From a virus: a DNA stretch of 42,537 nt. The translations under genes and the position numbers were made by a program. A model generated the notes under the pieces. It worked only from the letters and a program-made list of their open reading frames with translations. It made no database searches and was not told where the DNA came from. Shown here piece by piece: positions 2,376 to 24,968 of the stretch; within the stretch, counting starts at the first letter, position 1, and each line of letters begins with the position of its first letter. The stretch lies in the UHGV virus genome UHGV-0420230. One strand, given 5' to 3'.

Positions 2376-2558
2376 ATGATCATGCTGATTCTCGCGCCTC
2401 TGGTGGGCGTGCTGGGGGTGCTTTTGCTGGCGTATGGTGCCTGGCTGATTTATCCCCCGGCGGGGTTTGTTGTTGCCGGGGCGTTGTGCCTGTTCTGGTC
2501 GTGGCTGGTGGCGCGATATCTCGACCGTACACAGATGTCTGTTGGTGGAGGTAAATAG
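2376..2558 (+). CDS. small hydrophobic protein (hypothetical)
   Basis: 60-aa ORF, largely hydrophobic ([23 protein letters not shown]), packed between terminase and portal. Confidence 0.4.
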
Positions 2559-3799
2559 TGTTCTTTTCGGGATTATTTCAACGAAAAAGTGACGCACCGG
2601 TGACCACGCCAGCAGAGCTGGTGGATGCTATCGGGCTGTCATACGACACCTATACCGGAAAGCAGATCAGCAGCCAGAGGGCCATGCGACTGACGGCGGT
2701 TTTTTCCTGCGTCAGGGTGCTGGCGGAGTCGGTCGGGATGTTGCCCTGCAACCTGTATCACCTGAACGGCAGCCTGAAGCAGAGAGCCACTGGCGAACGT
2801 CTGCATAAGCTGATCTCCACGCATCCCAATGGCTATATGACGCCGCAGGAGTTCTGGGAGCTGGTGGTCACCTGTCTGTGCCTGCGGGGAAACTTTTACG
2901 CCTACAAAGTGAAAGCATTTGGCGAAGTGGCTGAACTGCTGCCCGTCGATCCCGGCTGTGTGGTACCGAAGCTTAACAGTAGCTGGGAGCCGGTCTATCA
3001 GGTCACATTCCCGGATGGCTCCACGGATGTACTGAGCCAGGAGGATATCTGGCATGTGCGCACGCTGACGCTGGACGGACTGGTGGGGCTGAATCCCGTC
3101 GCCTATGCCCGCGAGGCAATATCGCTGGCGGCAGCGACCGAAGAGCACGGGGCCAGACTGTTCAGCAATGGCGCGGTGACGTCGGGTGTGTTGCGTACAG
3201 AGCAGACGCTGTCAGATCAGGCTTATGAGCGCCTGAAGAAAGATTTTGAGGAGCGTCACACCGGGCTTGGCAATGCTCACCGCCCGATGATCCTTGAGAT
3301 GGGGCTGGACTGGAAGTCGATGGCGCTGAACGCCGAGGACAGCCAGTTCCTGGAAACCCGCAAGTTTCAGCTTGAAGAAATCTGTCGTCTGTTCCGTGTG
3401 CCATTGCACATGGTGCAGAACACCGATCGCGCCACCTTCAACAATATCGAAGAGCTGGGGCTGGGATTTATCAACTATTCACTGGTGCCGTATCTGACCC
3501 GCATTGAGCAGCGGATCAACACCGGACTGGTACGAAAAAGTAAGCAGGGCGTTTATTACGCCAAATTTAACGCCGGGGCGTTACTGCGCGGGGATATGAA
3601 GTCCCGTTTTGAAGCCTACGCCACCGGGATTAACTGGGGAATTTACTCTCCCAATGACTGCCGCGACCTGGAAGATATGAATCCGCGTCCCGGTGGGGAT
3701 GTCTATCTCACACCGATGAACATGACCACGAAACCCTCCGATGGCAGTAAAGCCGGTAAGCAGAAGGATAACGCCAATGCAGACGAAACAACGTCTTGA
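2558..3799 (+). CDS. portal protein (HK97 family)
   Basis: 413 aa in the canonical position after the large terminase; GTG start with GGAGG upstream; portal-like sequence. Confidence 0.8.
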   Translation: MFFSGLFQRKSDAPVTTPAELVDAIGLSYDTYTGKQISSQRAMRLTAVFSCVRVLAESVGMLPCNLYHLNGSLKQRATGERLHKLISTHPNGYMTPQEFWELVVTCLCLRGNFYAYKVKAFGEVAELLPVDPGCVVPKLNSSWEPVYQVTFPDGSTDVLSQEDIWHVRTLTLDGLVGLNPVAYAREAISLAAATEEHGARLFSNGAVTSGVLRTEQTLSDQAYERLKKDFEERHTGLGNAHRPMILEMGLDWKSMALNAEDSQFLETRKFQLEEICRLFRVPLHMVQNTDRATFNNIEELGLGFINYSLVPYLTRIEQRINTGLVRKSKQGVYYAKFNAGALLRGDMKSRFEAYATGINWGIYSPNDCRDLEDMNPRPGGDVYLTPMNMTTKPSDGSKAGKQKDNANADETTS

Positions 3800-10003: not shown

Positions 10004-10095
10004 ACCCCCTTGAACTTCGCCGGACGGCTATTTCCCACTTTGCTGATCTGGAGGCAGAGGCCGTCCGTATAAATGAGGAGATGAAGCATGGCTGA
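9680..10095 (+). CDS. predicted -1 frameshift-extended chaperone (G-T-like fusion product)
   Basis: T7 run 9931-9937 forms a T_TTT_TTT heptamer in the chaperone zero frame; the -1 frame is open from 9805 to TGA 10093-10095, overlapping the tape measure start. Confidence 0.45.
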
Positions 10096-11989
10096 TAATT
10101 TTCAGCTGAAAGCCATCATCACCGCCGTTGACAGGCTATCCGGCCCGCTTAAAGGTATGCAGCGTCAGCTTAAGGGGTTTCAGAAAGAAGTCTCCAGCCT
10201 TGCTCTGGGCGCTGCCGGGGCGGGTACTGCAATAATGGGGGCACTGGCACTCCCTGTAAAATCAGCCATCACCCTTGAATCGAAGATGGCTGATGTCCGC
10301 AAAGTGGTGGACGGTCTGGATACGCCGGATGCGTTTAAGGCCATGACGGAGCAGGTACGCGCTTTGTCTACTGAGCTTCCCATGTCTGCAGACGGGATCG
10401 CGGAAATTGTGGCGGCTGGCGGTCAGGCCGGGATTGCACGTGATGAACTGATGCAGTTTGCCACTGATGCGGTGAAGATGGGCGTGGCCTTTGATACCAC
10501 GGCTGAAGAGTCCGGGCAGATGATGGCCCAGTGGCGTACTGCGTTTAATATGACGCAGGATGAAGTGGCCGGGCTGGCTGACAAAATCAACTACCTTGGT
10601 AATACCGGCCCGGCGAATGCGAAGAAAATCTCCGATATTGTTACGCGTATTGGTCCTTTAGGTGGTGTTGCAGGTGTGGCTTCCGGCGAAATCGCGGCAA
10701 TGGGGGCAACCATTGCCGGGATGGGCGTGGAGTCAGAAATTGCCGCCACAGGGATCAAGAACTTCATGCTTTCCCTGACCGCGGGAAATTCCGCGACAAA
10801 ATCGCAGAAACAGGCATTACGTTTTCTGCGGATCAATCCGAAGAAATTAGCTGCTGATATGCAGAAAGATGCCCGGGGAACCATGCTGTCTGTACTGGAT
10901 GCGATGGCTAAAGTGCCTAAAGAAAAACAGGCAGCTGTGCTGAATGCCCTGTTCGGGAAAGAGTCTCTGGGCGCGATAGCTCCTCTGCTGACTAACCTTG
11001 ATTTGTTGCGTACCAACTTCAGGCGGGTTGCGGATTCCCAGCAGTATGGCAGTTCGATGCAGAAGGAATATGCTTCGAGGGCAGCGACGACGGAAAACCA
11101 GCTTTTACTTCTGCAAAATCAACTTGATGCCATTTCTTCCACTCTGGGGGAAACGTTTCTTCCTGAGGTTAATGATGGTCTTGAAGCGGTAAAACCGCTC
11201 CTTGAGGAAGTGAGAACGTTTGTCCGTGAAAACCCGGAGCTCGTTAAGACCATTGCTAAAATCGGTCTGGCTTTACTGACAGTGGGGGCCGCTGCAGGCT
11301 CTTTGTCCAGAATCATGAAAGTTCTCGGCGGTGTGATGAATATGACGCCTGCTAAGGGGCTGATTGCTCTTCTGGTTGGTGGCGCTTACCTCATTATTGA
11401 TAATTGGGAAACCGTAGGTCCTGTCATAAAAAAAGTCTGGCACGTGGTGGATGAAACGGCGCAGATGATGGGGGGATGGGAAACTGTTCTGAAAGCGATT
11501 GCCCTGTTTATGGCAACCAAATGGGTTGCTGACGTTACCAAATCCATTACCGCAGTGACCAGAGAGATGCGTACGCTGGGGAAGGTATCGGCAGAAACGG
11601 GATTGATGGGGAAAGGCCGCGGCTTTATCGGGAAGGCCGGGGTATATGGTTTTCTGGGAACCCTGATGTATGAGCCGGTTAAAGATACTCTGGAAAGTGT
11701 TGTTCCTGAAGATACGGTTAACTGGCTGGATAATAAAGGGCTGTTTCTGGCTTCAGACTGGACGCCTTTTTTTGATCGTAAAGAGTACGAGCAGTATCAG
11801 GCCAGCCTGAGTCAGTACAAACCCAATGTTCCGCTGTTGAATCCATCTTCTTCCATGACACAGCACAGCGAGCTGAAAGTCACGTTCGAGAATGCTCCGC
11901 CAGGTATGAAGATAATTGATGTACCGGGCAAAGCCGATCCCCTGATGAAAATCACGCACGATGTGGGGTATTCTCCATTCAGACGATAA
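10088..11989 (+). CDS. tail tape measure protein
   Basis: 633 aa, alpha-helical Ala/Gly-rich protein after the chaperone; GAGGAG RBS. Confidence 0.85.
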   Translation: MADNFQLKAIITAVDRLSGPLKGMQRQLKGFQKEVSSLALGAAGAGTAIMGALALPVKSAITLESKMADVRKVVDGLDTPDAFKAMTEQVRALSTELPMSADGIAEIVAAGGQAGIARDELMQFATDAVKMGVAFDTTAEESGQMMAQWRTAFNMTQDEVAGLADKINYLGNTGPANAKKISDIVTRIGPLGGVAGVASGEIAAMGATIAGMGVESEIAATGIKNFMLSLTAGNSATKSQKQALRFLRINPKKLAADMQKDARGTMLSVLDAMAKVPKEKQAAVLNALFGKESLGAIAPLLTNLDLLRTNFRRVADSQQYGSSMQKEYASRAATTENQLLLLQNQLDAISSTLGETFLPEVNDGLEAVKPLLEEVRTFVRENPELVKTIAKIGLALLTVGAAAGSLSRIMKVLGGVMNMTPAKGLIALLVGGAYLIIDNWETVGPVIKKVWHVVDETAQMMGGWETVLKAIALFMATKWVADVTKSITAVTREMRTLGKVSAETGLMGKGRGFIGKAGVYGFLGTLMYEPVKDTLESVVPEDTVNWLDNKGLFLASDWTPFFDRKEYEQYQASLSQYKPNVPLLNPSSSMTQHSELKVTFENAPPGMKIIDVPGKADPLMKITHDVGYSPFRR

Positions 11990-12053
11990 TATAACTACTT
12001 TAATCAAGTAGGGTTATTGAGTGGTAAAGTTTGTGCTGAATGTAGGAGAGAAT

Positions 12054-12542
12054 ATGAAGAAAATGTTTATATTGTTGTTGGCTGTAGGACTGCCATTAAA
12101 CTCCTTTGCGAAGCCAGTAACGGAAAAGCAGCTTGCTACATACTTTATAGATAACGTTAAAACTTCAGCGGATAAGAATATAGATCTAGATGTAGAGGGA
12201 ATAAATAGACTGTCTGTAATATGCCCAGCAAAGTCGGCAAGTGGAACTCTTTTAATAAAAAAAGCATCCTACGAGTTTAATAAAAGCATTGGTGCTTTTG
12301 ATTTTGAAAATAACTCACAATCTGCACCATTGACTTTTATTGTACCAATTAGTGAGGATGAAAATAACTTTGACTCGGAAATTATTGGTTTCTCTTTTGC
12401 ATTTAAAATGCCAAGAGGGCAATTCTTTGTTGATGTTACGAAAACAGGGAAGGTAAAGGCTGGCGTAAATATTAGTGGTGAAAGCGGAATTACTTATTCA
12501 TCATGTAGAATAGATACTCATAATGTTGATTATGATCGTTAA
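12054..12542 (+). CDS. secreted hypothetical protein (moron with Sec-type signal peptide)
   Basis: AGGAG 12044-12048 then ATG 12054; N-terminus MKKMFILLLAVGLPLNSFA-KP is a typical signal peptide; strongly AT-rich versus flanking tail genes; own terminator. Confidence 0.7.
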   Translation: MKKMFILLLAVGLPLNSFAKPVTEKQLATYFIDNVKTSADKNIDLDVEGINRLSVICPAKSASGTLLIKKASYEFNKSIGAFDFENNSQSAPLTFIVPISEDENNFDSEIIGFSFAFKMPRGQFFVDVTKTGKVKAGVNISGESGITYSSCRIDTHNVDYDR

Positions 12543-12598: not shown

Positions 12599-13972
12599 AT
12601 GGATTTTTCTCATATTTCTTCGTACCTATCCTCTGATTCTCGAAGTGGCTGGCGTGAAAAGCTACTTGAAGCATCATTTCGAGGTGTGCCGTTTAAGGTT
12701 GAAGAAGAAAGTGCGGGAACCGGTCGCCGTGTGGAAACACATGAATACCCGAACCGCGACAAGCCCTATACCGAAGATCTGGGAAAAGTCACTTTCCGCC
12801 CGTCCATCACAGCTTATGTGGTGGGAGATGACTGCTTTGACCAGCGCGATCGCCTGATTGAAGCGCTGAATAAACCCGGTCCCGGCACGCTTGTCCACCC
12901 GACATATGGTGAGCTGAAAGTCTGTGTTGACGGGGAAGTTCGGGTCAGCACATCGAAAAGTGAAGGGCGTATTGTCCGCTTTGACCTGAAGTTTGTCGAA
13001 GCAGGAGAACTCTCTTACCCCACATCAGGTGCGGCGACGGCGCAGACGCTGATGTCATCCTGTTCTGCACTGGATGACTGCATCAGTGACAGCTTCAGCG
13101 GTTTCAGTATCGATGGTGTGGCGGATTTCGTGCAGAACGACGTTATCGGTAATGCCAGCATAATGCTGGGGTATGTTTCTGATGCGATGAAAGTGGTGGA
13201 TTCTGCCGTATCGGATGCCGCCAGGCTGTTGCAGGGGGATATCTCGGTACTTCTGCAGCCGCCATCGTCAGGCAAAAATTTCGTTGAGCAGGTGCAGAAA
13301 ATGTGGCGTACCGGGAAACGCCTTTATGGTAACGCCAGCGACCTGGTCACCATGATCAAAACGCTTTCCGGTGTCAGCCTCGGCAGCGATCTGCAACCGC
13401 GCGGCGTCTGGAAAACGGACAGTAAAACCACCGCCACGGCGACGCAGCAGCGTAACGTGGTTGCCAGCACCCTTCGTACGACCGCAATCAGCGAAGCGGC
13501 GTATGCCGTCACCCGATTGCCTGCGCCAACAACTTCCGCGGTGATGCAGAATTCCGCAGTGGGGCAGGCAACAACACCTGCGCAGAGCACTGGCTGGCCT
13601 TCCGTCACGCATCCGGCACTGAACAATGCACCGGCGGTGAAAAACACGGTTGACCTGCCGACGTGGGAAGAACTGACTGACATTCGCGACACACTGAATA
13701 CGGCAATTGATAAGGAGTTGTCCCGTACAACCAGTGATGCGCTGTTTCTGGCGCTGCGCCGGGTGAAAGCAGATCTGAATGCGGATATCAACACGCGCCT
13801 TGAACAGTCTGCACGGATCATTCAGCGCACGCCGGATGAGGTTTTACCCGCGCTGGTGCTGGCGGCGACCTGGTTTGATAACGCGGCGCGTGACGCGGAC
13901 ATTATCCGGCGTAATGCCATTACGCATCCCGGCTTTGTGCCGGTGATCCCTCTGAAGGTGCCAGTGCAATGA
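12599..13972 (+). CDS. DNA circulation protein (Mu gp43-like)
   Basis: 457 aa in the conserved position after the tape measure in Mu-type tails. Confidence 0.75.
   Translation: MDFSHISSYLSSDSRSGWREKLLEASFRGVPFKVEEESAGTGRRVETHEYPNRDKPYTEDLGKVTFRPSITAYVVGDDCFDQRDRLIEALNKPGPGTLVHPTYGELKVCVDGEVRVSTSKSEGRIVRFDLKFVEAGELSYPTSGAATAQTLMSSCSALDDCISDSFSGFSIDGVADFVQNDVIGNASIMLGYVSDAMKVVDSAVSDAARLLQGDISVLLQPPSSGKNFVEQVQKMWRTGKRLYGNASDLVTMIKTLSGVSLGSDLQPRGVWKTDSKTTATATQQRNVVASTLRTTAISEAAYAVTRLPAPTTSAVMQNSAVGQATTPAQSTGWPSVTHPALNNAPAVKNTVDLPTWEELTDIRDTLNTAIDKELSRTTSDALFLALRRVKADLNADINTRLEQSARIIQRTPDEVLPALVLAATWFDNAARDADIIRRNAITHPGFVPVIPLKVPVQ
13173..13226. repeat. internal copy of the 54-bp sequence also found at 1-54
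   Basis: Exact identity to window 1-54. Confidence 0.9.
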
Positions 13973-20503: not shown

Positions 20504-21199
20504 TTATGCACTATTTTTAGGTCTTGTAACCCGAGGTGGGAGTTGTTTGGTTATATGTTCAAGTGATTTTTTGCCCAAGATAGTTCTTTGGACAAAACTT
20601 TCTATAGCTTCTAGCATTTGTTCGAACTCACTTTTATTCGGGCTCCAACTGCGATGTGCGGCGGCGTTTCCTGCATCAATTACAGAAGATATAACGCATG
20701 CCTCAGTGTCGCCTATGACTCCATCTTGTTTTAATTTTTCAACTTTTTCACCAAGCGGCAAACCGGGGTGAATTTGTAACAGTTCAGCAGTTCGATCAAA
20801 AATCGTCCGTAAACCGATGGACGAAAGAATGAAATGGTCAGAAGTATATGAAGAATACATTTCATTAAATATTTGAAAGAGCTGACGATCAACTGATTCA
20901 AGCTTGGATAACCATATCGGAGCTTGAAATGTTTCAGCGGCAGGATAGGTAGTGATCATATCTATAGGCGTTTCTACAAATTCACCATCACGATATTCGT
21001 GGGTAGTATGCTCACTGAAGTGTTCGTTGTGGTGATAGAAGACAGTATCACAGCCATTGCATTGGAGTAGGTGATGGTAATGGTACCCATAAACTGGATA
21101 TTGGGAATCCTCCCAGCTAGTGGTTAGCTTCCCATGCACAGTGCAGTTACGTAACCCACCGCATGTAGGGCAAAGAGCCTTGAGTATTTCCTTTTTCAT
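20504..21199 (-). CDS. zinc-ribbon protein with C-terminal DUF4145-like helical domain (candidate defence/accessory gene)
   Basis: 231 aa; N-terminal CPTCGG...C-x16-CNGC; C-terminal ...GNAAAH...EFEQMLEAIESFV resembles the DUF4145 signature (memory); AT-rich; sits where e14 carries mcrA. Confidence 0.65.
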   Translation of the reverse strand: MKKEILKALCPTCGGLRNCTVHGKLTTSWEDSQYPVYGYHYHHLLQCNGCDTVFYHHNEHFSEHTTHEYRDGEFVETPIDMITTYPAAETFQAPIWLSKLESVDRQLFQIFNEMYSSYTSDHFILSSIGLRTIFDRTAELLQIHPGLPLGEKVEKLKQDGVIGDTEACVISSVIDAGNAAAHRSWSPNKSEFEQMLEAIESFVQRTILGKKSLEHITKQLPPRVTRPKNSA

Positions 21200-21857: not shown

Positions 21858-22955
21858 TCAAGAGGTCTTATTTCTGCTCCTTTGGAGCTCTTCAAAACGA
21901 TTATGTAAAGATTTCGGATACAGTTCGGTATATACCTGCCATAGCACGTTTAATGAACGATGCCCTGTAACCTGGGCGACTTCCTCAATACTAAAACCAG
22001 CCTCAAATAAGCGACTTGCCCCTTCTCTACGCAAATCATGGTATCGCAGATCCTTAATACCTAATTTGCTTCTTACTCTCTGAAATCCCGCAGTAACAGA
22101 AGTGCTGTTATATGGAAAAATGAATTCCGATTTTTGGGGCTGTCGTTGGACGATATCCCAGGCTTCCCCAAGCAAGGCTACTTTCATGTGGTTGCCTTCC
22201 TTTTTGCGTGGATCTTTCCTGTCTCTTACGAGTATAGATTTTTGTTCCTGGTCGAGATCTTCCCATCGTAACCGGCATACTTCTCCGATTCGCATACAGG
22301 ACCATACAGAAAATTTGAGGATATCAACGAACGGAATTTTTGAGCATTTATGAGTAGATCGTTGTTGAAGGCCTGCAATGAGCATGTCCAGTTCATCAGA
22401 TGCTGGTCTACGATTACGACGGTTTGATTTACCAATCAAACCAAGTTTAAGTAGATATGGGCGAGCGCTTTTCGCCGGGTTTGATGTGTAATTAATTCCG
22501 TATACAGGTTTGGCCGCATCCAGAACACTGCCAAGATAACTAACATCGTGGCTGACTGTTGCTGGACCTGCACCAGCGTTGTTTCTTAGCCTGCAATGTT
22601 CAATTACGTCATTTTCTGTCAGTTCAGATAGTTTGATCGCGGAGATGTCACTATCCATAAGCAGTTCCAGCACATATCTTTTAGTACGGCCTGCTTTACC
22701 TCCGGCATTTGGGTCATTTAAATATTTGTGTAGTAAGTCACGGACTGTAAGTCCGTCAACTGCATTTGATGATGGAATGCCATATAGATCTAATTCCATC
22801 ACTTTCTGTGTGCCCCATGTTTTGGCATGAGCATGTTTAGGGAATGTTTTGCTTTCCCTGTAAGTGATAACACCTTTTTCTTTGATAATCACATTACAGC
22901 GATAGCGTGGTGTGCCATCGGATTTTAGTCGTTTCTCTATGTTATAGTACGCCAT
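21858..22955 (-). CDS. int: tyrosine integrase
   Basis: 365 aa; C-terminal catalytic region with R, H and Y (...YHDLRREGASRL...GHRSLNVLWQVYTEL); GAGGT RBS. Confidence 0.85.
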   Translation of the reverse strand: MAYYNIEKRLKSDGTPRYRCNVIIKEKGVITYRESKTFPKHAHAKTWGTQKVMELDLYGIPSSNAVDGLTVRDLLHKYLNDPNAGGKAGRTKRYVLELLMDSDISAIKLSELTENDVIEHCRLRNNAGAGPATVSHDVSYLGSVLDAAKPVYGINYTSNPAKSARPYLLKLGLIGKSNRRNRRPASDELDMLIAGLQQRSTHKCSKIPFVDILKFSVWSCMRIGEVCRLRWEDLDQEQKSILVRDRKDPRKKEGNHMKVALLGEAWDIVQRQPQKSEFIFPYNSTSVTAGFQRVRSKLGIKDLRYHDLRREGASRLFEAGFSIEEVAQVTGHRSLNVLWQVYTELYPKSLHNRFEELQRSRNKTS

Positions 22956-22959
22956 TACA

Positions 22960-23216
22960 CGACCTCGTTATTTCGGGTTCCCATAAAACGTGGGAACCTG
23001 AGCGGGAACCTAACGCGAGAAAAATAGCCTGAAATGTTCAAAAATGCACGATAATCATGAAACACAAAAAATTAATCAAACCAGCGTGATGCCTGAAAAA
23101 ACTGGTGTTTACTGGAATTCTCGGTTTAGCATTGCTCCTATGCTCGATAGGATGTACCGTTTTTGAAAAACAACTAGTTATACACTTTGTGGGAGCCTAT
23201 TGGGAACCTGTTATTC
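22960..23216. other. integrase-proximal non-coding region with GGGAACCT repeats (candidate arm-type sites / attP region)
   Basis: GGGTTCCC at 22968, GGGAACCT at 22987 and 22998, GGGAGCCT/GGGAACCT at 23190-23212; about 445 bp without a convincing ORF. Confidence 0.3.
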
Positions 23217-23401
23217 TTAGAAAGCATCATTTGCTCATCACTTCAATTGACCATGGTTAAAGCCAGCTATAAACTTGACAAACGAGGTAACTGGTTGCTT
23301 AGGCCCAAGTGGGCACACCATAAGAAGCTCGTGTTGGTGATGAAGCAACCCATGAAGTATCGAGAATAATTATAAAGTTCACTATCTTTGAGGTTTCTTA
23401 T

Positions 23402-23974
23402 ATGTTTTGCGAAGAAAAAGTAGCTCAAATGGCTGCATACCTACTTCTTAAGCGAGGTGGGCGCATGGCATATCTGAAATTGATGAAGTTGCTCTATCTG
23501 TCTAACCGCCAGTCGATTTTGAAGCATGGCAGGATGATCGGCGAAGATAGCCTTTACTCTATGAAATTTGGACCAGTCATGTCGAATACGCTGAACTTGA
23601 TTCGCGGTAAGGCTGAAGGCATTGGTGACTACTGGTACAACTTGATAGAGACGAACGGGCATAATGTATCGTTGCGTTCAGATCCGAGGGAAATGGATGC
23701 AGACGAGGTCTTTGATGAATTGAGTCGTGCAGATATCCGGATTTTAGATGAAATCTATTCTCGGTATGGGCATATGAACCGATTTGATCTCGCAAATATG
23801 ACGCATTTAGAAAGCGTTTGTCCAGAGTGGCACGATCCTGGCAATTCTCGTAAGCCTATAGACCTGAAAGAAATGCTGATCAGTGAGGGTAAAAGCGAGG
23901 ATGAGGCTAATCGCATAATTGGCAAAATGGAAGAATCTCAGAAACTTAAGGAATTTTCTTTGCAATTATCATGA
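23402..23974 (+). CDS. Panacea (DUF4065)-like domain protein, candidate antitoxin
   Basis: 190 aa; ...YLKLMKLLYLSNRQSILKHGRMIGEDSLYSMKFGPVMSNTLNLI fits the Panacea pattern (LKLQKLLYY...GPV) from memory; GAGG RBS; AT-rich. Confidence 0.6.
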   Translation: MFCEEKVAQMAAYLLLKRGGRMAYLKLMKLLYLSNRQSILKHGRMIGEDSLYSMKFGPVMSNTLNLIRGKAEGIGDYWYNLIETNGHNVSLRSDPREMDADEVFDELSRADIRILDEIYSRYGHMNRFDLANMTHLESVCPEWHDPGNSRKPIDLKEMLISEGKSEDEANRIIGKMEESQKLKEFSLQLS

Positions 23975-24390
23975 CGGATTATCAGCCATACAGGAAAGGA
24001 ACTGTGCTTGCCCCAACTGGGCCATGCAATCATCTTCATGTGATTTGTAATGATCCTGTTTATTACCCCGTTAACGATTGTTATTGTGTTTTAGTTGTTA
24101 ATATTTCTAGTATCAAGGATGGTGTCCCCCACGATCCGTCTTGCGTCTTGAATTCTGGTGATCATCGCTTTATCAAGCATCCAAGTTATGTTGTTTACGC
24201 TGAAGCTATAATTTGGCGAGTGGATAACATGGTTAGAAAGCAGCGATCGGGTGAGATTTCTGTTCATGATGATATGCCAGAAGCTACATTCAATAGAATT
24301 CTGGACGGTTTTGATATCTCTGATGAAGTTACGCCAAAGAACCTTAAATTTAAAAATAAATATTGCGTATCATCTATTGATGATGAGTAA
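23971..24390 (+). CDS. hypothetical protein, candidate toxin/effector partner
   Basis: 139 aa; start overlaps the upstream stop (ATGA at 23971-23974), implying translational coupling; no recognised family. Confidence 0.55.
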   Translation: MTDYQPYRKGTVLAPTGPCNHLHVICNDPVYYPVNDCYCVLVVNISSIKDGVPHDPSCVLNSGDHRFIKHPSYVVYAEAIIWRVDNMVRKQRSGEISVHDDMPEATFNRILDGFDISDEVTPKNLKFKNKYCVSSIDDE

Positions 24391-24429
24391 ACAACAGGAA
24401 TTGTTTCGGTATAACTTCAGGAGTTTTCT

Positions 24430-24603
24430 ATGGAAGATCAAAAAGCAACCAAGCCACAGGTTAAGTTCGACACAATGAAAGCATTCGCAGGTATGGGTGC
24501 TGCTGTTGAAGTTCTGATGAAGGCTGCTCCTAATGCGTTCACTCACGCTACTGTCTCTGGTAAAGAGCAGCAGGGTAAGCTTCGTCGTCGCAAAGCAGCA
24601 TGA
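24430..24603 (+). CDS. small hypothetical protein (57 aa)
   Basis: Not in the supplied track (below 60 aa); AGGAG at 24419-24423, ATG 24430, basic C-terminus (GKLRRRKAA); terminator directly downstream. Confidence 0.45.
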   Translation: MEDQKATKPQVKFDTMKAFAGMGAAVEVLMKAAPNAFTHATVSGKEQQGKLRRRKAA

Positions 24604-24619
24604 TCATAGCTGGTGCTTT

Positions 24620-24650
24620 TTGAAAACCCGCCTTTAGGCGGGTTTTTTCT
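24620..24650. terminator. bidirectional rho-independent terminator
   Basis: Hairpin AAAACCCGCC-TTTA-GGCGGGTTTT flanked by an A-run and a T-run; terminates both the plus-strand cassette and the leftward early operon. Confidence 0.7.
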
Positions 24651-24932
24651 TTAGTGATGTTCTTTGCCCTTCTGTTTGCTTGTTCTGACCTGTTCCCACT
24701 CGATACGTCCTTCTTCTCGTCTTTTGTCTATGTATTCCGCAAGATCCTGAATATTGATGCAACGTTTTGCTTTTTGTGATGTGCCGATGCGATATGTTGG
24801 AACGGGCAACTTACAAGCGTTTGCTTTTGCTTCTGCCGTGGCTGGACTCATGCCAAAGTACTTTTGGCTAACTGCTGAGAGTTCAATGTTAGGGGTATTG
24901 AATTCAGCCATCAGTAAAAACAAGGTGTTCAT
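24651..24932 (-). CDS. PrtN-family / excisionase-like DNA-binding protein
   Basis: MNTLFLLMAEFNTPNIEL...INIQDLAEYIDKRREE resembles the PrtN/Xis-like family; last gene of the leftward operon. Confidence 0.65.
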   Translation of the reverse strand: MNTLFLLMAEFNTPNIELSAVSQKYFGMSPATAEAKANACKLPVPTYRIGTSQKAKRCINIQDLAEYIDKRREEGRIEWEQVRTSKQKGKEHH

Positions 24933-24968
24933 AATTTTCTCCATCAAAACCGGCTGCACCCGGGAAAA

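Follow-up and report, generated by a model that had tools for sequence, protein, structure and literature searches.

Beside the integrase gene of the virus genome UHGV-0420230 lie three small open reading frames (ORFs) of common orientation, which raises the question of whether they form a toxin-antitoxin or anti-phage system, which of them belong to it and what its effector would do. The complete stretch of 42,537 nucleotides (nt) was analyzed and is referred to as the window. A preliminary description of positions 23402-24650 had proposed a three-gene cassette composed of a Panacea (DUF4065) protein, a partner of 139 amino acids (aa) that could be placed in no family, and a 57-aa ORF as a possible third component. 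The analysis indicates that the segment 23209-24416 is very probably a two-gene PanA-PanT toxin-antitoxin module of the T6 class. The T6 type of PanAT is already known, and the new element is its Escherichia coli prophage member at the edge of the dusA attachment site. The coordinates, lengths and plus-strand orientation given earlier for the three ORFs proved correct, and the elements of the locus are as follows:

23402-23974, plus strand: panA (ORF1), predicted standalone Panacea-domain antitoxin, 190 aa; Pfam PF13274 match, RefSeq WP_000458584.1
23971-24390, plus strand: panT (ORF2), predicted toxin of the MazF/Kid/CcdB fold, PanT cluster T6, 139 aa; its start overlaps the panA stop
24430-24603, plus strand: ORF3, basic protein of 57 aa, isoelectric point (pI) 10.2; full-length phrog_2741 match with an expectation value (E) of 8e-36
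23209-24416, plus strand: swappable cargo unit of private upstream region, panA and panT; BLAST breakpoints against phage mEp460
24622-24647, no strand assigned: bidirectional intrinsic terminator, with ORF3 and xis converging on it

The PanA-PanT pair and its published class

The Panacea domain attributed to the 190-aa protein was verified by a profile hidden Markov model search. ORF1 matched Pfam SocA_Panacea (PF13274) with 70.9 bits (cutoff 25.7), E 2.2e-19, over 109 of the 113 profile positions, and RefSeq labels WP_000458584.1 as a 'Panacea domain-containing protein'. The domain comprises residues 27-137, with the conserved motif CPEW..P and a charged tail on its C-terminal side; ORF1 has neither an additional N-terminal domain nor a DNA-binding domain. 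The GPV motif, which is critical for neutralisation by Panacea according to Kurata et al. (PMC8832971), corresponds to G57-P58-V59, with G57 invariant and P58 and V59 at least 90% conserved among 25 orthologs. Comparison of ORF1 with NCBIfam SocA_antitoxin (NF047745) gave 14.4 bits against a cutoff of 190, and ORF1 is therefore not a SocA equivalog. The antitoxin of SocAB, the type VI toxin-antitoxin system of Caulobacter, contains the same Panacea/SocA domain; however, SocA is a ClpXP adaptor, whereas PanAs have been shown to bind their toxins directly, and SocB, an inhibitor of the replication clamp, is unrelated to ORF2.

The ATGA overlap described for the first two ORFs is present at 23971-23974, where the TGA of ORF1 overlaps the ATG of ORF2. 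The start codon of ORF1 is preceded by GAGG at a spacing of 8 nt and that of ORF3 by the previously noted ribosome-binding site AGGAG at 6 nt, and inspection of the sequence upstream of ORF2 revealed no suitably spaced Shine-Dalgarno sequence. Together with the overlap, this indicates that translation of ORF2 is probably coupled to that of ORF1. Co-transcription and translational coupling of panA and panT would ensure that the antitoxin is made at least stoichiometrically with the toxin. In the RefSeq record WP_014640052.1, ORF2 is opened 11 codons late at GTG 24004, which yields a protein of 128 aa. Since M1, P6, G10 and T11, all encoded 5' of this codon, are conserved in a family alignment of 42 sequences, ATG 23971 is identified by conservation as the genuine start and the RefSeq start as wrong; the latter hides the ATGA coupling with panA in the database.

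In each of the 25 genomic loci tested, which represent gamma-, alpha- and betaproteobacteria and extend down to about 30% identity, the ORF2 homolog is directly preceded by a Panacea ORF, and the two genes mostly overlap by 4 nt or 1 nt. The same arrangement was found in both of two distant family members and in all 15 divergent viral loci that included the upstream region. The identities of PanA and PanT co-vary (Pearson 0.94, Spearman 0.86, n=24), with PanT usually being the better conserved partner. The earlier suggestion of a toxin-antitoxin system is thus supported by the Pfam match, by the GPV motif and by a pairing that is conserved in all loci examined.

In the catalogue of Kurata et al. 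(2022, PNAS; PMC8832971), the toxins that accompany Panacea antitoxins fall into 88 clusters. One of these, T6, was annotated by HHpred as 'EndoA/PemK/MazF-family RNAses', and shows the antitoxin before the toxin with overlaps of -4 or -1 (PMC8832971). Three strong matches to the ORF2 family profile are T6 entries of Dataset S1 by accession:

P0151, WP_025672779.1, Salinivibrio socompensis: E 1.4e-46
P0104, WP_101821906.1, Chimaeribacter ('Yersiniaceae bacterium 2016Iso4'): E 2e-58
P0250, WP_002684473.1, Beggiatoa alba: E 1.6e-26

The T6-listed loci of Pantoea septica LMG 5345 and Chimaeribacter 2016-Iso4 were also recovered. Judged by these accession matches, ORF2 is a member of the catalogued PanT class, which has one validated example, and not a new toxin as had been suggested. 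The validated example is the T6 pair of Pseudomonas moraviensis (PanA WP_083354365.1, PanT WP_083201923.1), which is toxic, neutralised and complex-forming (PMC8832971). Its toxin specifically inhibits protein synthesis, and the pair is a type II toxin-antitoxin system (PMC8832971). The pair in the window shares with it the standalone ('noNTD') Panacea antitoxin as the first gene, a toxin of about 135 aa as the second, an overlap of 4 or 1 nt and the predicted MazF/PemK-like toxin fold, besides the T6 listing of the three ORF2 homologs. The N-terminus of PanA reads MFCEEKVAQ here and MIFSEQKVAQ in P. moraviensis. The P. moraviensis pair was scored 'NotPhage', whereas the pair described here is phage-borne at a dusA attachment site. 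By analogy, PanA, which consists of a Panacea domain and a conserved extension at its C-terminus, would bind PanT directly and keep it inactive, and the toxicity, neutralisation, complex formation and translation inhibition reported for P. moraviensis may apply to this pair as well.

Fold and conserved residues of PanT

The AlphaFold model of ORF2 (predicted local distance difference test score 90) has the MazF/Kid/CcdB barrel fold, and with this fold and the T6-listed homologs the 139-aa protein is no longer without a family. Within the MazF/Kid(PemK)/CcdB superfamily, ORF2 is distinguished by about 25 extra C-terminal residues that form additional helices, and by a Panacea partner in place of MazE, Kis or CcdA. 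The ORF2 family was recovered as 62 clusters by single-sequence search and as 198-270 clusters by profile search; it comprises at least 2,722 representatives at 50% identity in an exhaustive search and is not covered by a Pfam model. Neither ORF2 nor ORF3 matched a Pfam, NCBIfam or PADLOC model. Weak matches to ICMT (E 0.05) and DapC (E 0.002) among the scans of these two proteins were far under the cutoffs and were dismissed. By analogy with the P. moraviensis toxin, free PanT would most likely block translation, probably via cutting of RNA; a ribonuclease (RNase) mechanism as such is slightly favored.

Several results weigh against a MazF-type toxin, and some of them against membership in a class of validated toxicity. 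No match of ORF2 to Pfam PemK_toxin (PF02452) was obtained at E up to 1. Profile searches of the Protein Data Bank with the ORF2 family retrieved no MazF at E up to 10, only chance matches (E >0.3), and comparison of the family with MazF, Kid, EndoA and ChpB by hhalign, based on approximate sequences of these toxins, gave a probability of 0.1% and no alignment. The predicted likeness of ORF2 to MazF is one of fold and not of sequence. ORF2 has a pI of 5.6 and its family a median of 7.1, compared with 8.5 for MazF, and an acidic protein is unusual for an RNA-binding toxin. The invariant residues H21, D55, C58, H65, S/T47, S/T72, Y76 and S117 likewise differ from the Arg/Thr pair of MazF, so that ORF2 departs from the MazF/Kid/CcdB superfamily in its invariant residues, its acidic pI and its lack of sequence-profile similarity. 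Furthermore, 8 of the 25 PanTs assayed by Kurata et al. were not toxic in E. coli (PMC8832971). The P. moraviensis PanT WP_083201923.1 was not among the named matches of two ORF2 profile searches, and the kinship of ORF2 with this validated toxin would run through the published cluster assignment and not through a direct alignment.

Because the invariant set is unlike the Arg/Thr pair of MazF, the label 'RNase' is an extrapolation for this family. H21, L22, D55, C58, G63, H65, F67, Y76, G113 and S117 are 91-99% conserved among 127 representatives of 24-50% identity, and positions 47 and 72 carry Ser or Thr in all or almost all sequences (126 of 128 at position 47). H23 and C26 of the local motif HLHVICNDP are subfamily-specific. 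From this pattern, a variant RNase site, a metal site or a Cys/His/Asp centre are all possible in the ORF2 family. The best surviving rival explanation, although unlikely, retains the two-gene module and holds that PanT is not a metal-independent RNase of the MazF type: His21, Asp55, Cys58 and His65, together with Ser/Thr47, Ser72, Tyr76 and Ser117, would build a metal site or a catalytic centre of Cys, His and Asp on the MazF barrel, and the chemistry or the target would differ from that of MazF. The residues of this set are 97-99% conserved in the 127 representatives and are kept in alpha- and betaproteobacterial members, while profile comparison detects no counterpart of the conserved MazF set G22, E24, Q25, R29, P30 and T52, and the pI of the family is acidic to neutral. 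The main text of Kurata et al. offers no analysis of catalytic residues for T6 and does not use the terms 'catalytic', 'active site' and 'cysteine' (PMC8832971). On the other hand, the validated T6 member resembles MazF in its specific inhibition of translation (PMC8832971), and the conserved Cys/His set could equally be purely structural. By strand register, which does not involve an alignment, H21-L22 and S/T47 of ORF2 would occupy the places of R29 and T52 of MazF; the Arg is not conserved and the Ser/Thr is, which would fit a variant acid-base RNase site.

A more specific proposal appears distinctly less probable than this rival. It regards T6 PanTs as a distinct enzyme family on a MazF barrel with a His-Asp-Cys-His (plus Ser/Thr and Tyr) centre, which would serve in the lysogen as an abortive-infection effector that is triggered when an infecting phage perturbs PanA. 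With a very large toxin family that lacks a Pfam model and has an invariant set unlike that of MazF, the biochemistry is a tractable question, and the E. coli prophage copy provides a convenient native-host model for T6 chemistry and for tests of phage defence by PanAT.

A CcdB-like PanT, which would poison gyrase or another DNA enzyme, is improbable; translation, and not a DNA enzyme, is the process inhibited by the validated T6 toxin. Even less credit is given to the explanation that PanA is a counter-defence antitoxin decoy directed against PanT-type toxins of the host, with ORF2 as a non-toxic passenger. Phage antitoxin mimics such as Dmd of T4 do exist (cited in PMC8832971), and some PanTs are non-toxic in E. 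coli (PMC8832971), but the two genes are strictly co-inherited, overlap and diverge together, chromosomal non-phage contexts included, and the stronger conservation of ORF2 compared with PanA argues for ORF2 as the selected effector.

Unit boundaries and the dusA attachment site

The two-gene PanA-PanT module has clear borders. Backbone homology with phage mEp460 runs up to 23208 and resumes at 24417, 13 nt before the ATG of ORF3, so the swapped unit 23209-24416 contains two genes and not the three of the cassette proposed initially, with about 190 nt of private upstream sequence. A second E. coli locus, L030, diverges from the window at 23252 and resumes at 24682. In mEp460, int, attP, the 57-aa ORF and xis are shared at 96-98% identity and a 177-aa gene takes the place of panAT; ORF3 is kept there at 98% identity although ORF1 and ORF2 are replaced by this unrelated gene. 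ORF3 is therefore a gene of the phage backbone, shares only the terminator with the module and is confined to this phage lineage. A three-component system that includes ORF3, as suggested by its common direction, its start 40 nt downstream of ORF2 and the common terminator, is the least probable of all explanations and is contradicted by the breakpoints and the distribution of ORF3. This gene lies beyond the cargo breakpoint, is found behind a different gene in mEp460 and does not accompany the pair in any of 25 genomic and 16 viral loci, nor the divergent module of L030; in the viral locus L098, panT is directly followed by xis.

The terminator placed earlier at 24620-24650 was confirmed as a hairpin at 24622-24647 with an 11-bp stem containing 6 G-C pairs, a T-run downstream and an A-run upstream, and an RNA folding energy of -21.7 kcal/mol (z = -3.5). 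The cassette had also been described as AT-richer than the phage backbone. The G+C content of ORF1 (0.431) and ORF2 (0.386) is indeed below that of the window (0.510). Equally low values for int (0.428), xis (0.434) and the dusA stub (0.382) show, however, that the low G+C content belongs to the whole int-att-xis region and not specifically to the cassette. The features of this region are:

21858-22955, minus strand: dusA-associated tyrosine integrase; Pfam Phage_integrase, 74.9 bits
23044-23166, plus strand: 5' end of dusA supplied by the phage as a replacement, 40 codons, with the attP core inside it; fragments annotated as tRNA-dihydrouridine synthase in SKA5 and RefSeq, and attP/attL/attR alignment
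23140-23147, no strand assigned: common core of attP, ATGCTCGA, crossover zone of 8 nt; 255 nt upstream of panA
23247-23275, plus strand: candidate sigma-70 promoter TTGACC-17-TAAACT; 9/12 matches, weak, in the cassette-specific leader
24651-24959, minus strand: PrtN-type excisionase gene (xis), convergent with the cassette; Pfam PyocinActivator, 81.8 bits, and phrog_1300 excisionase

The spacer additionally contains a 60-aa ORF at 23187-23369, which is without annotation in the phage and RefSeq records examined.

Tyrosine integrases that target the 5' end of dusA constitute the dusA-associated integrase system (Farrugia et al. 2015; PMC4482086). Prophages and islands of this kind (PMC4482086) share with the region described here the integrase at the dusA 5' end, the replacement 5' end, the PrtN-like gene and mosaic cargo. 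In a three-way alignment with both prophage ends of E. coli NZ_AP027829, attP is identical to attR up to 23147 and to attL from 23140, which defines the 8-nt common core. Since this core separates int from panAT, the module comes to lie at the attL end upon integration, in the same orientation as the orphaned promoter and 5' stub of the host dusA and about 255 nt downstream of them. In the NZ_AP027829 lysogen, int (3194774-3195871) adjoins the restored dusA, and PanA is found at 3149624, about 45 kb away at the other end of the prophage, where panA directly follows the orphaned 5' stub of the host dusA in the same direction. In agreement with this geometry, a panAT gene lies within the first few hundred bases of many contigs among the IMG/VR prophage predictions. 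The position beside the integrase is thus correct for the circular or virion form, but in the lysogen int and PanA stand at opposite prophage ends. Similarly, the region is a cargo slot as stated, although not so much an integrase-proximal one as the att-proximal prophage end opposite the integrase.

Expression, possible role and other occupants of the slot

No plus-strand terminator was predicted from the dusA stub to 24622, which would allow read-through from the dusA promoter in the integrated and circular forms alike, and expression of panAT by this route is possible. In a lysogen, the module could be transcribed by dusA read-through as well as from its own weak candidate promoter. Only short repeats at chance level were detected in a search for operator-like repeats upstream of panA. 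The module is a moron of a lambdoid E. coli phage that integrates into dusA, and could benefit the prophage by abortive-infection-type exclusion of other phages, by stabilisation of the prophage, or by both. A role in anti-phage defence is proposed tentatively, with slightly less than even confidence; it is inferred, as are the toxicity of this particular ORF2, an RNA target, expression in lysogens and an addiction function. A 'sensor' role for Panacea has been proposed by Ernits et al. (2023). Three results speak against expression from an own promoter or against defence: the promoter scan yielded a single weak site in the cassette leader, with a site count in the region that is not above the shuffled expectation; ORF1, ORF2 and ORF3 showed no match to PADLOC-DB 2.0 at E up to 1; and no defence phenotype was found in the literature for this PanAT class.

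A search of 5,426 complete E. coli genomes gave partial matches to the region in 742, and at least 205 contain the full locus, so that a function is proposed here for a 'hypothetical protein' that is widespread in this species and mis-started in RefSeq. Comparison of the loci identifies the att-proximal end of lambdoid prophages that integrate into dusA as a site of exchange, in which PanA-plus-partner modules, the 177-aa gene and a gene for a CoiA-like nuclease replace or join one another. The dusA attL slot of E. coli CFS3292 (L030, 1690-2738) harbors a divergent PanA with 32% identity to ORF1 and a 153-aa partner without a Pfam match, whose similarity to ORF2 is not significant (E 0.012 over 20 residues). 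Compared with the window, PanA and its partner have here been swapped as a whole module at one prophage slot. The most common alternative occupant is the 177-aa gp23 of mEp460 (L003, 3196-3729), for which no Pfam match was obtained; it is also present in O157:H7 and O111 and is widespread in dusA prophages of enterohaemorrhagic E. coli. In E. coli OkiPb01700 (L032, 2642-3676), a gene for a 344-aa CoiA-nuclease-like protein (40 bits to Pfam CoiA_nuc) interrupts exactly the bidirectional terminator that separates ORF3 from xis, at 24626/24630 of the window, which makes this terminator a second insertion point for cargo. The dusA prophage remnant of E. coli PSJ-23 (L031, 2865-3601) has panA split into two short ORFs and panT truncated at the equivalent of 24214 in the window, so both partners have decayed together.

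PanA-PanT pairs with 71-76% identity were also located inside the tail module of other phages, in two IMG/VR contigs (L099 and L108, about 2400-3450), where the order is tail terminator, Big_2 tail protein, DUF6246, PanA-PanT and a gene for a BamE-like lipoprotein. This location and the clean breakpoints show that the two genes travel together, as a mobile moron that is not tied to int-proximal regions.

Two further genes of the window resemble accessory genes. The plus-strand ORF at 12021-12542 encodes 173 aa with a signal-peptide-like N-terminus, MKKMFILLLAVGLPLNSFA, and forms a trough in G+C content (0.35, compared with about 0.55 on either side). Its neighbours are the tape-measure gene (10088-11989) on one side and a further tail gene (12599-13972) on the other, and it looks like a moron for a secreted protein or lipoprotein in the tail module. 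On the minus strand, positions 20504-21199 encode an AT-rich DUF4145 protein of 231 aa (Pfam 39 bits; phrog_1305 'DNA binding protein') with Cys-rich N-terminal motifs. Its gene lies between the tail-fibre genes and dinI, as a further accessory gene near the att region.

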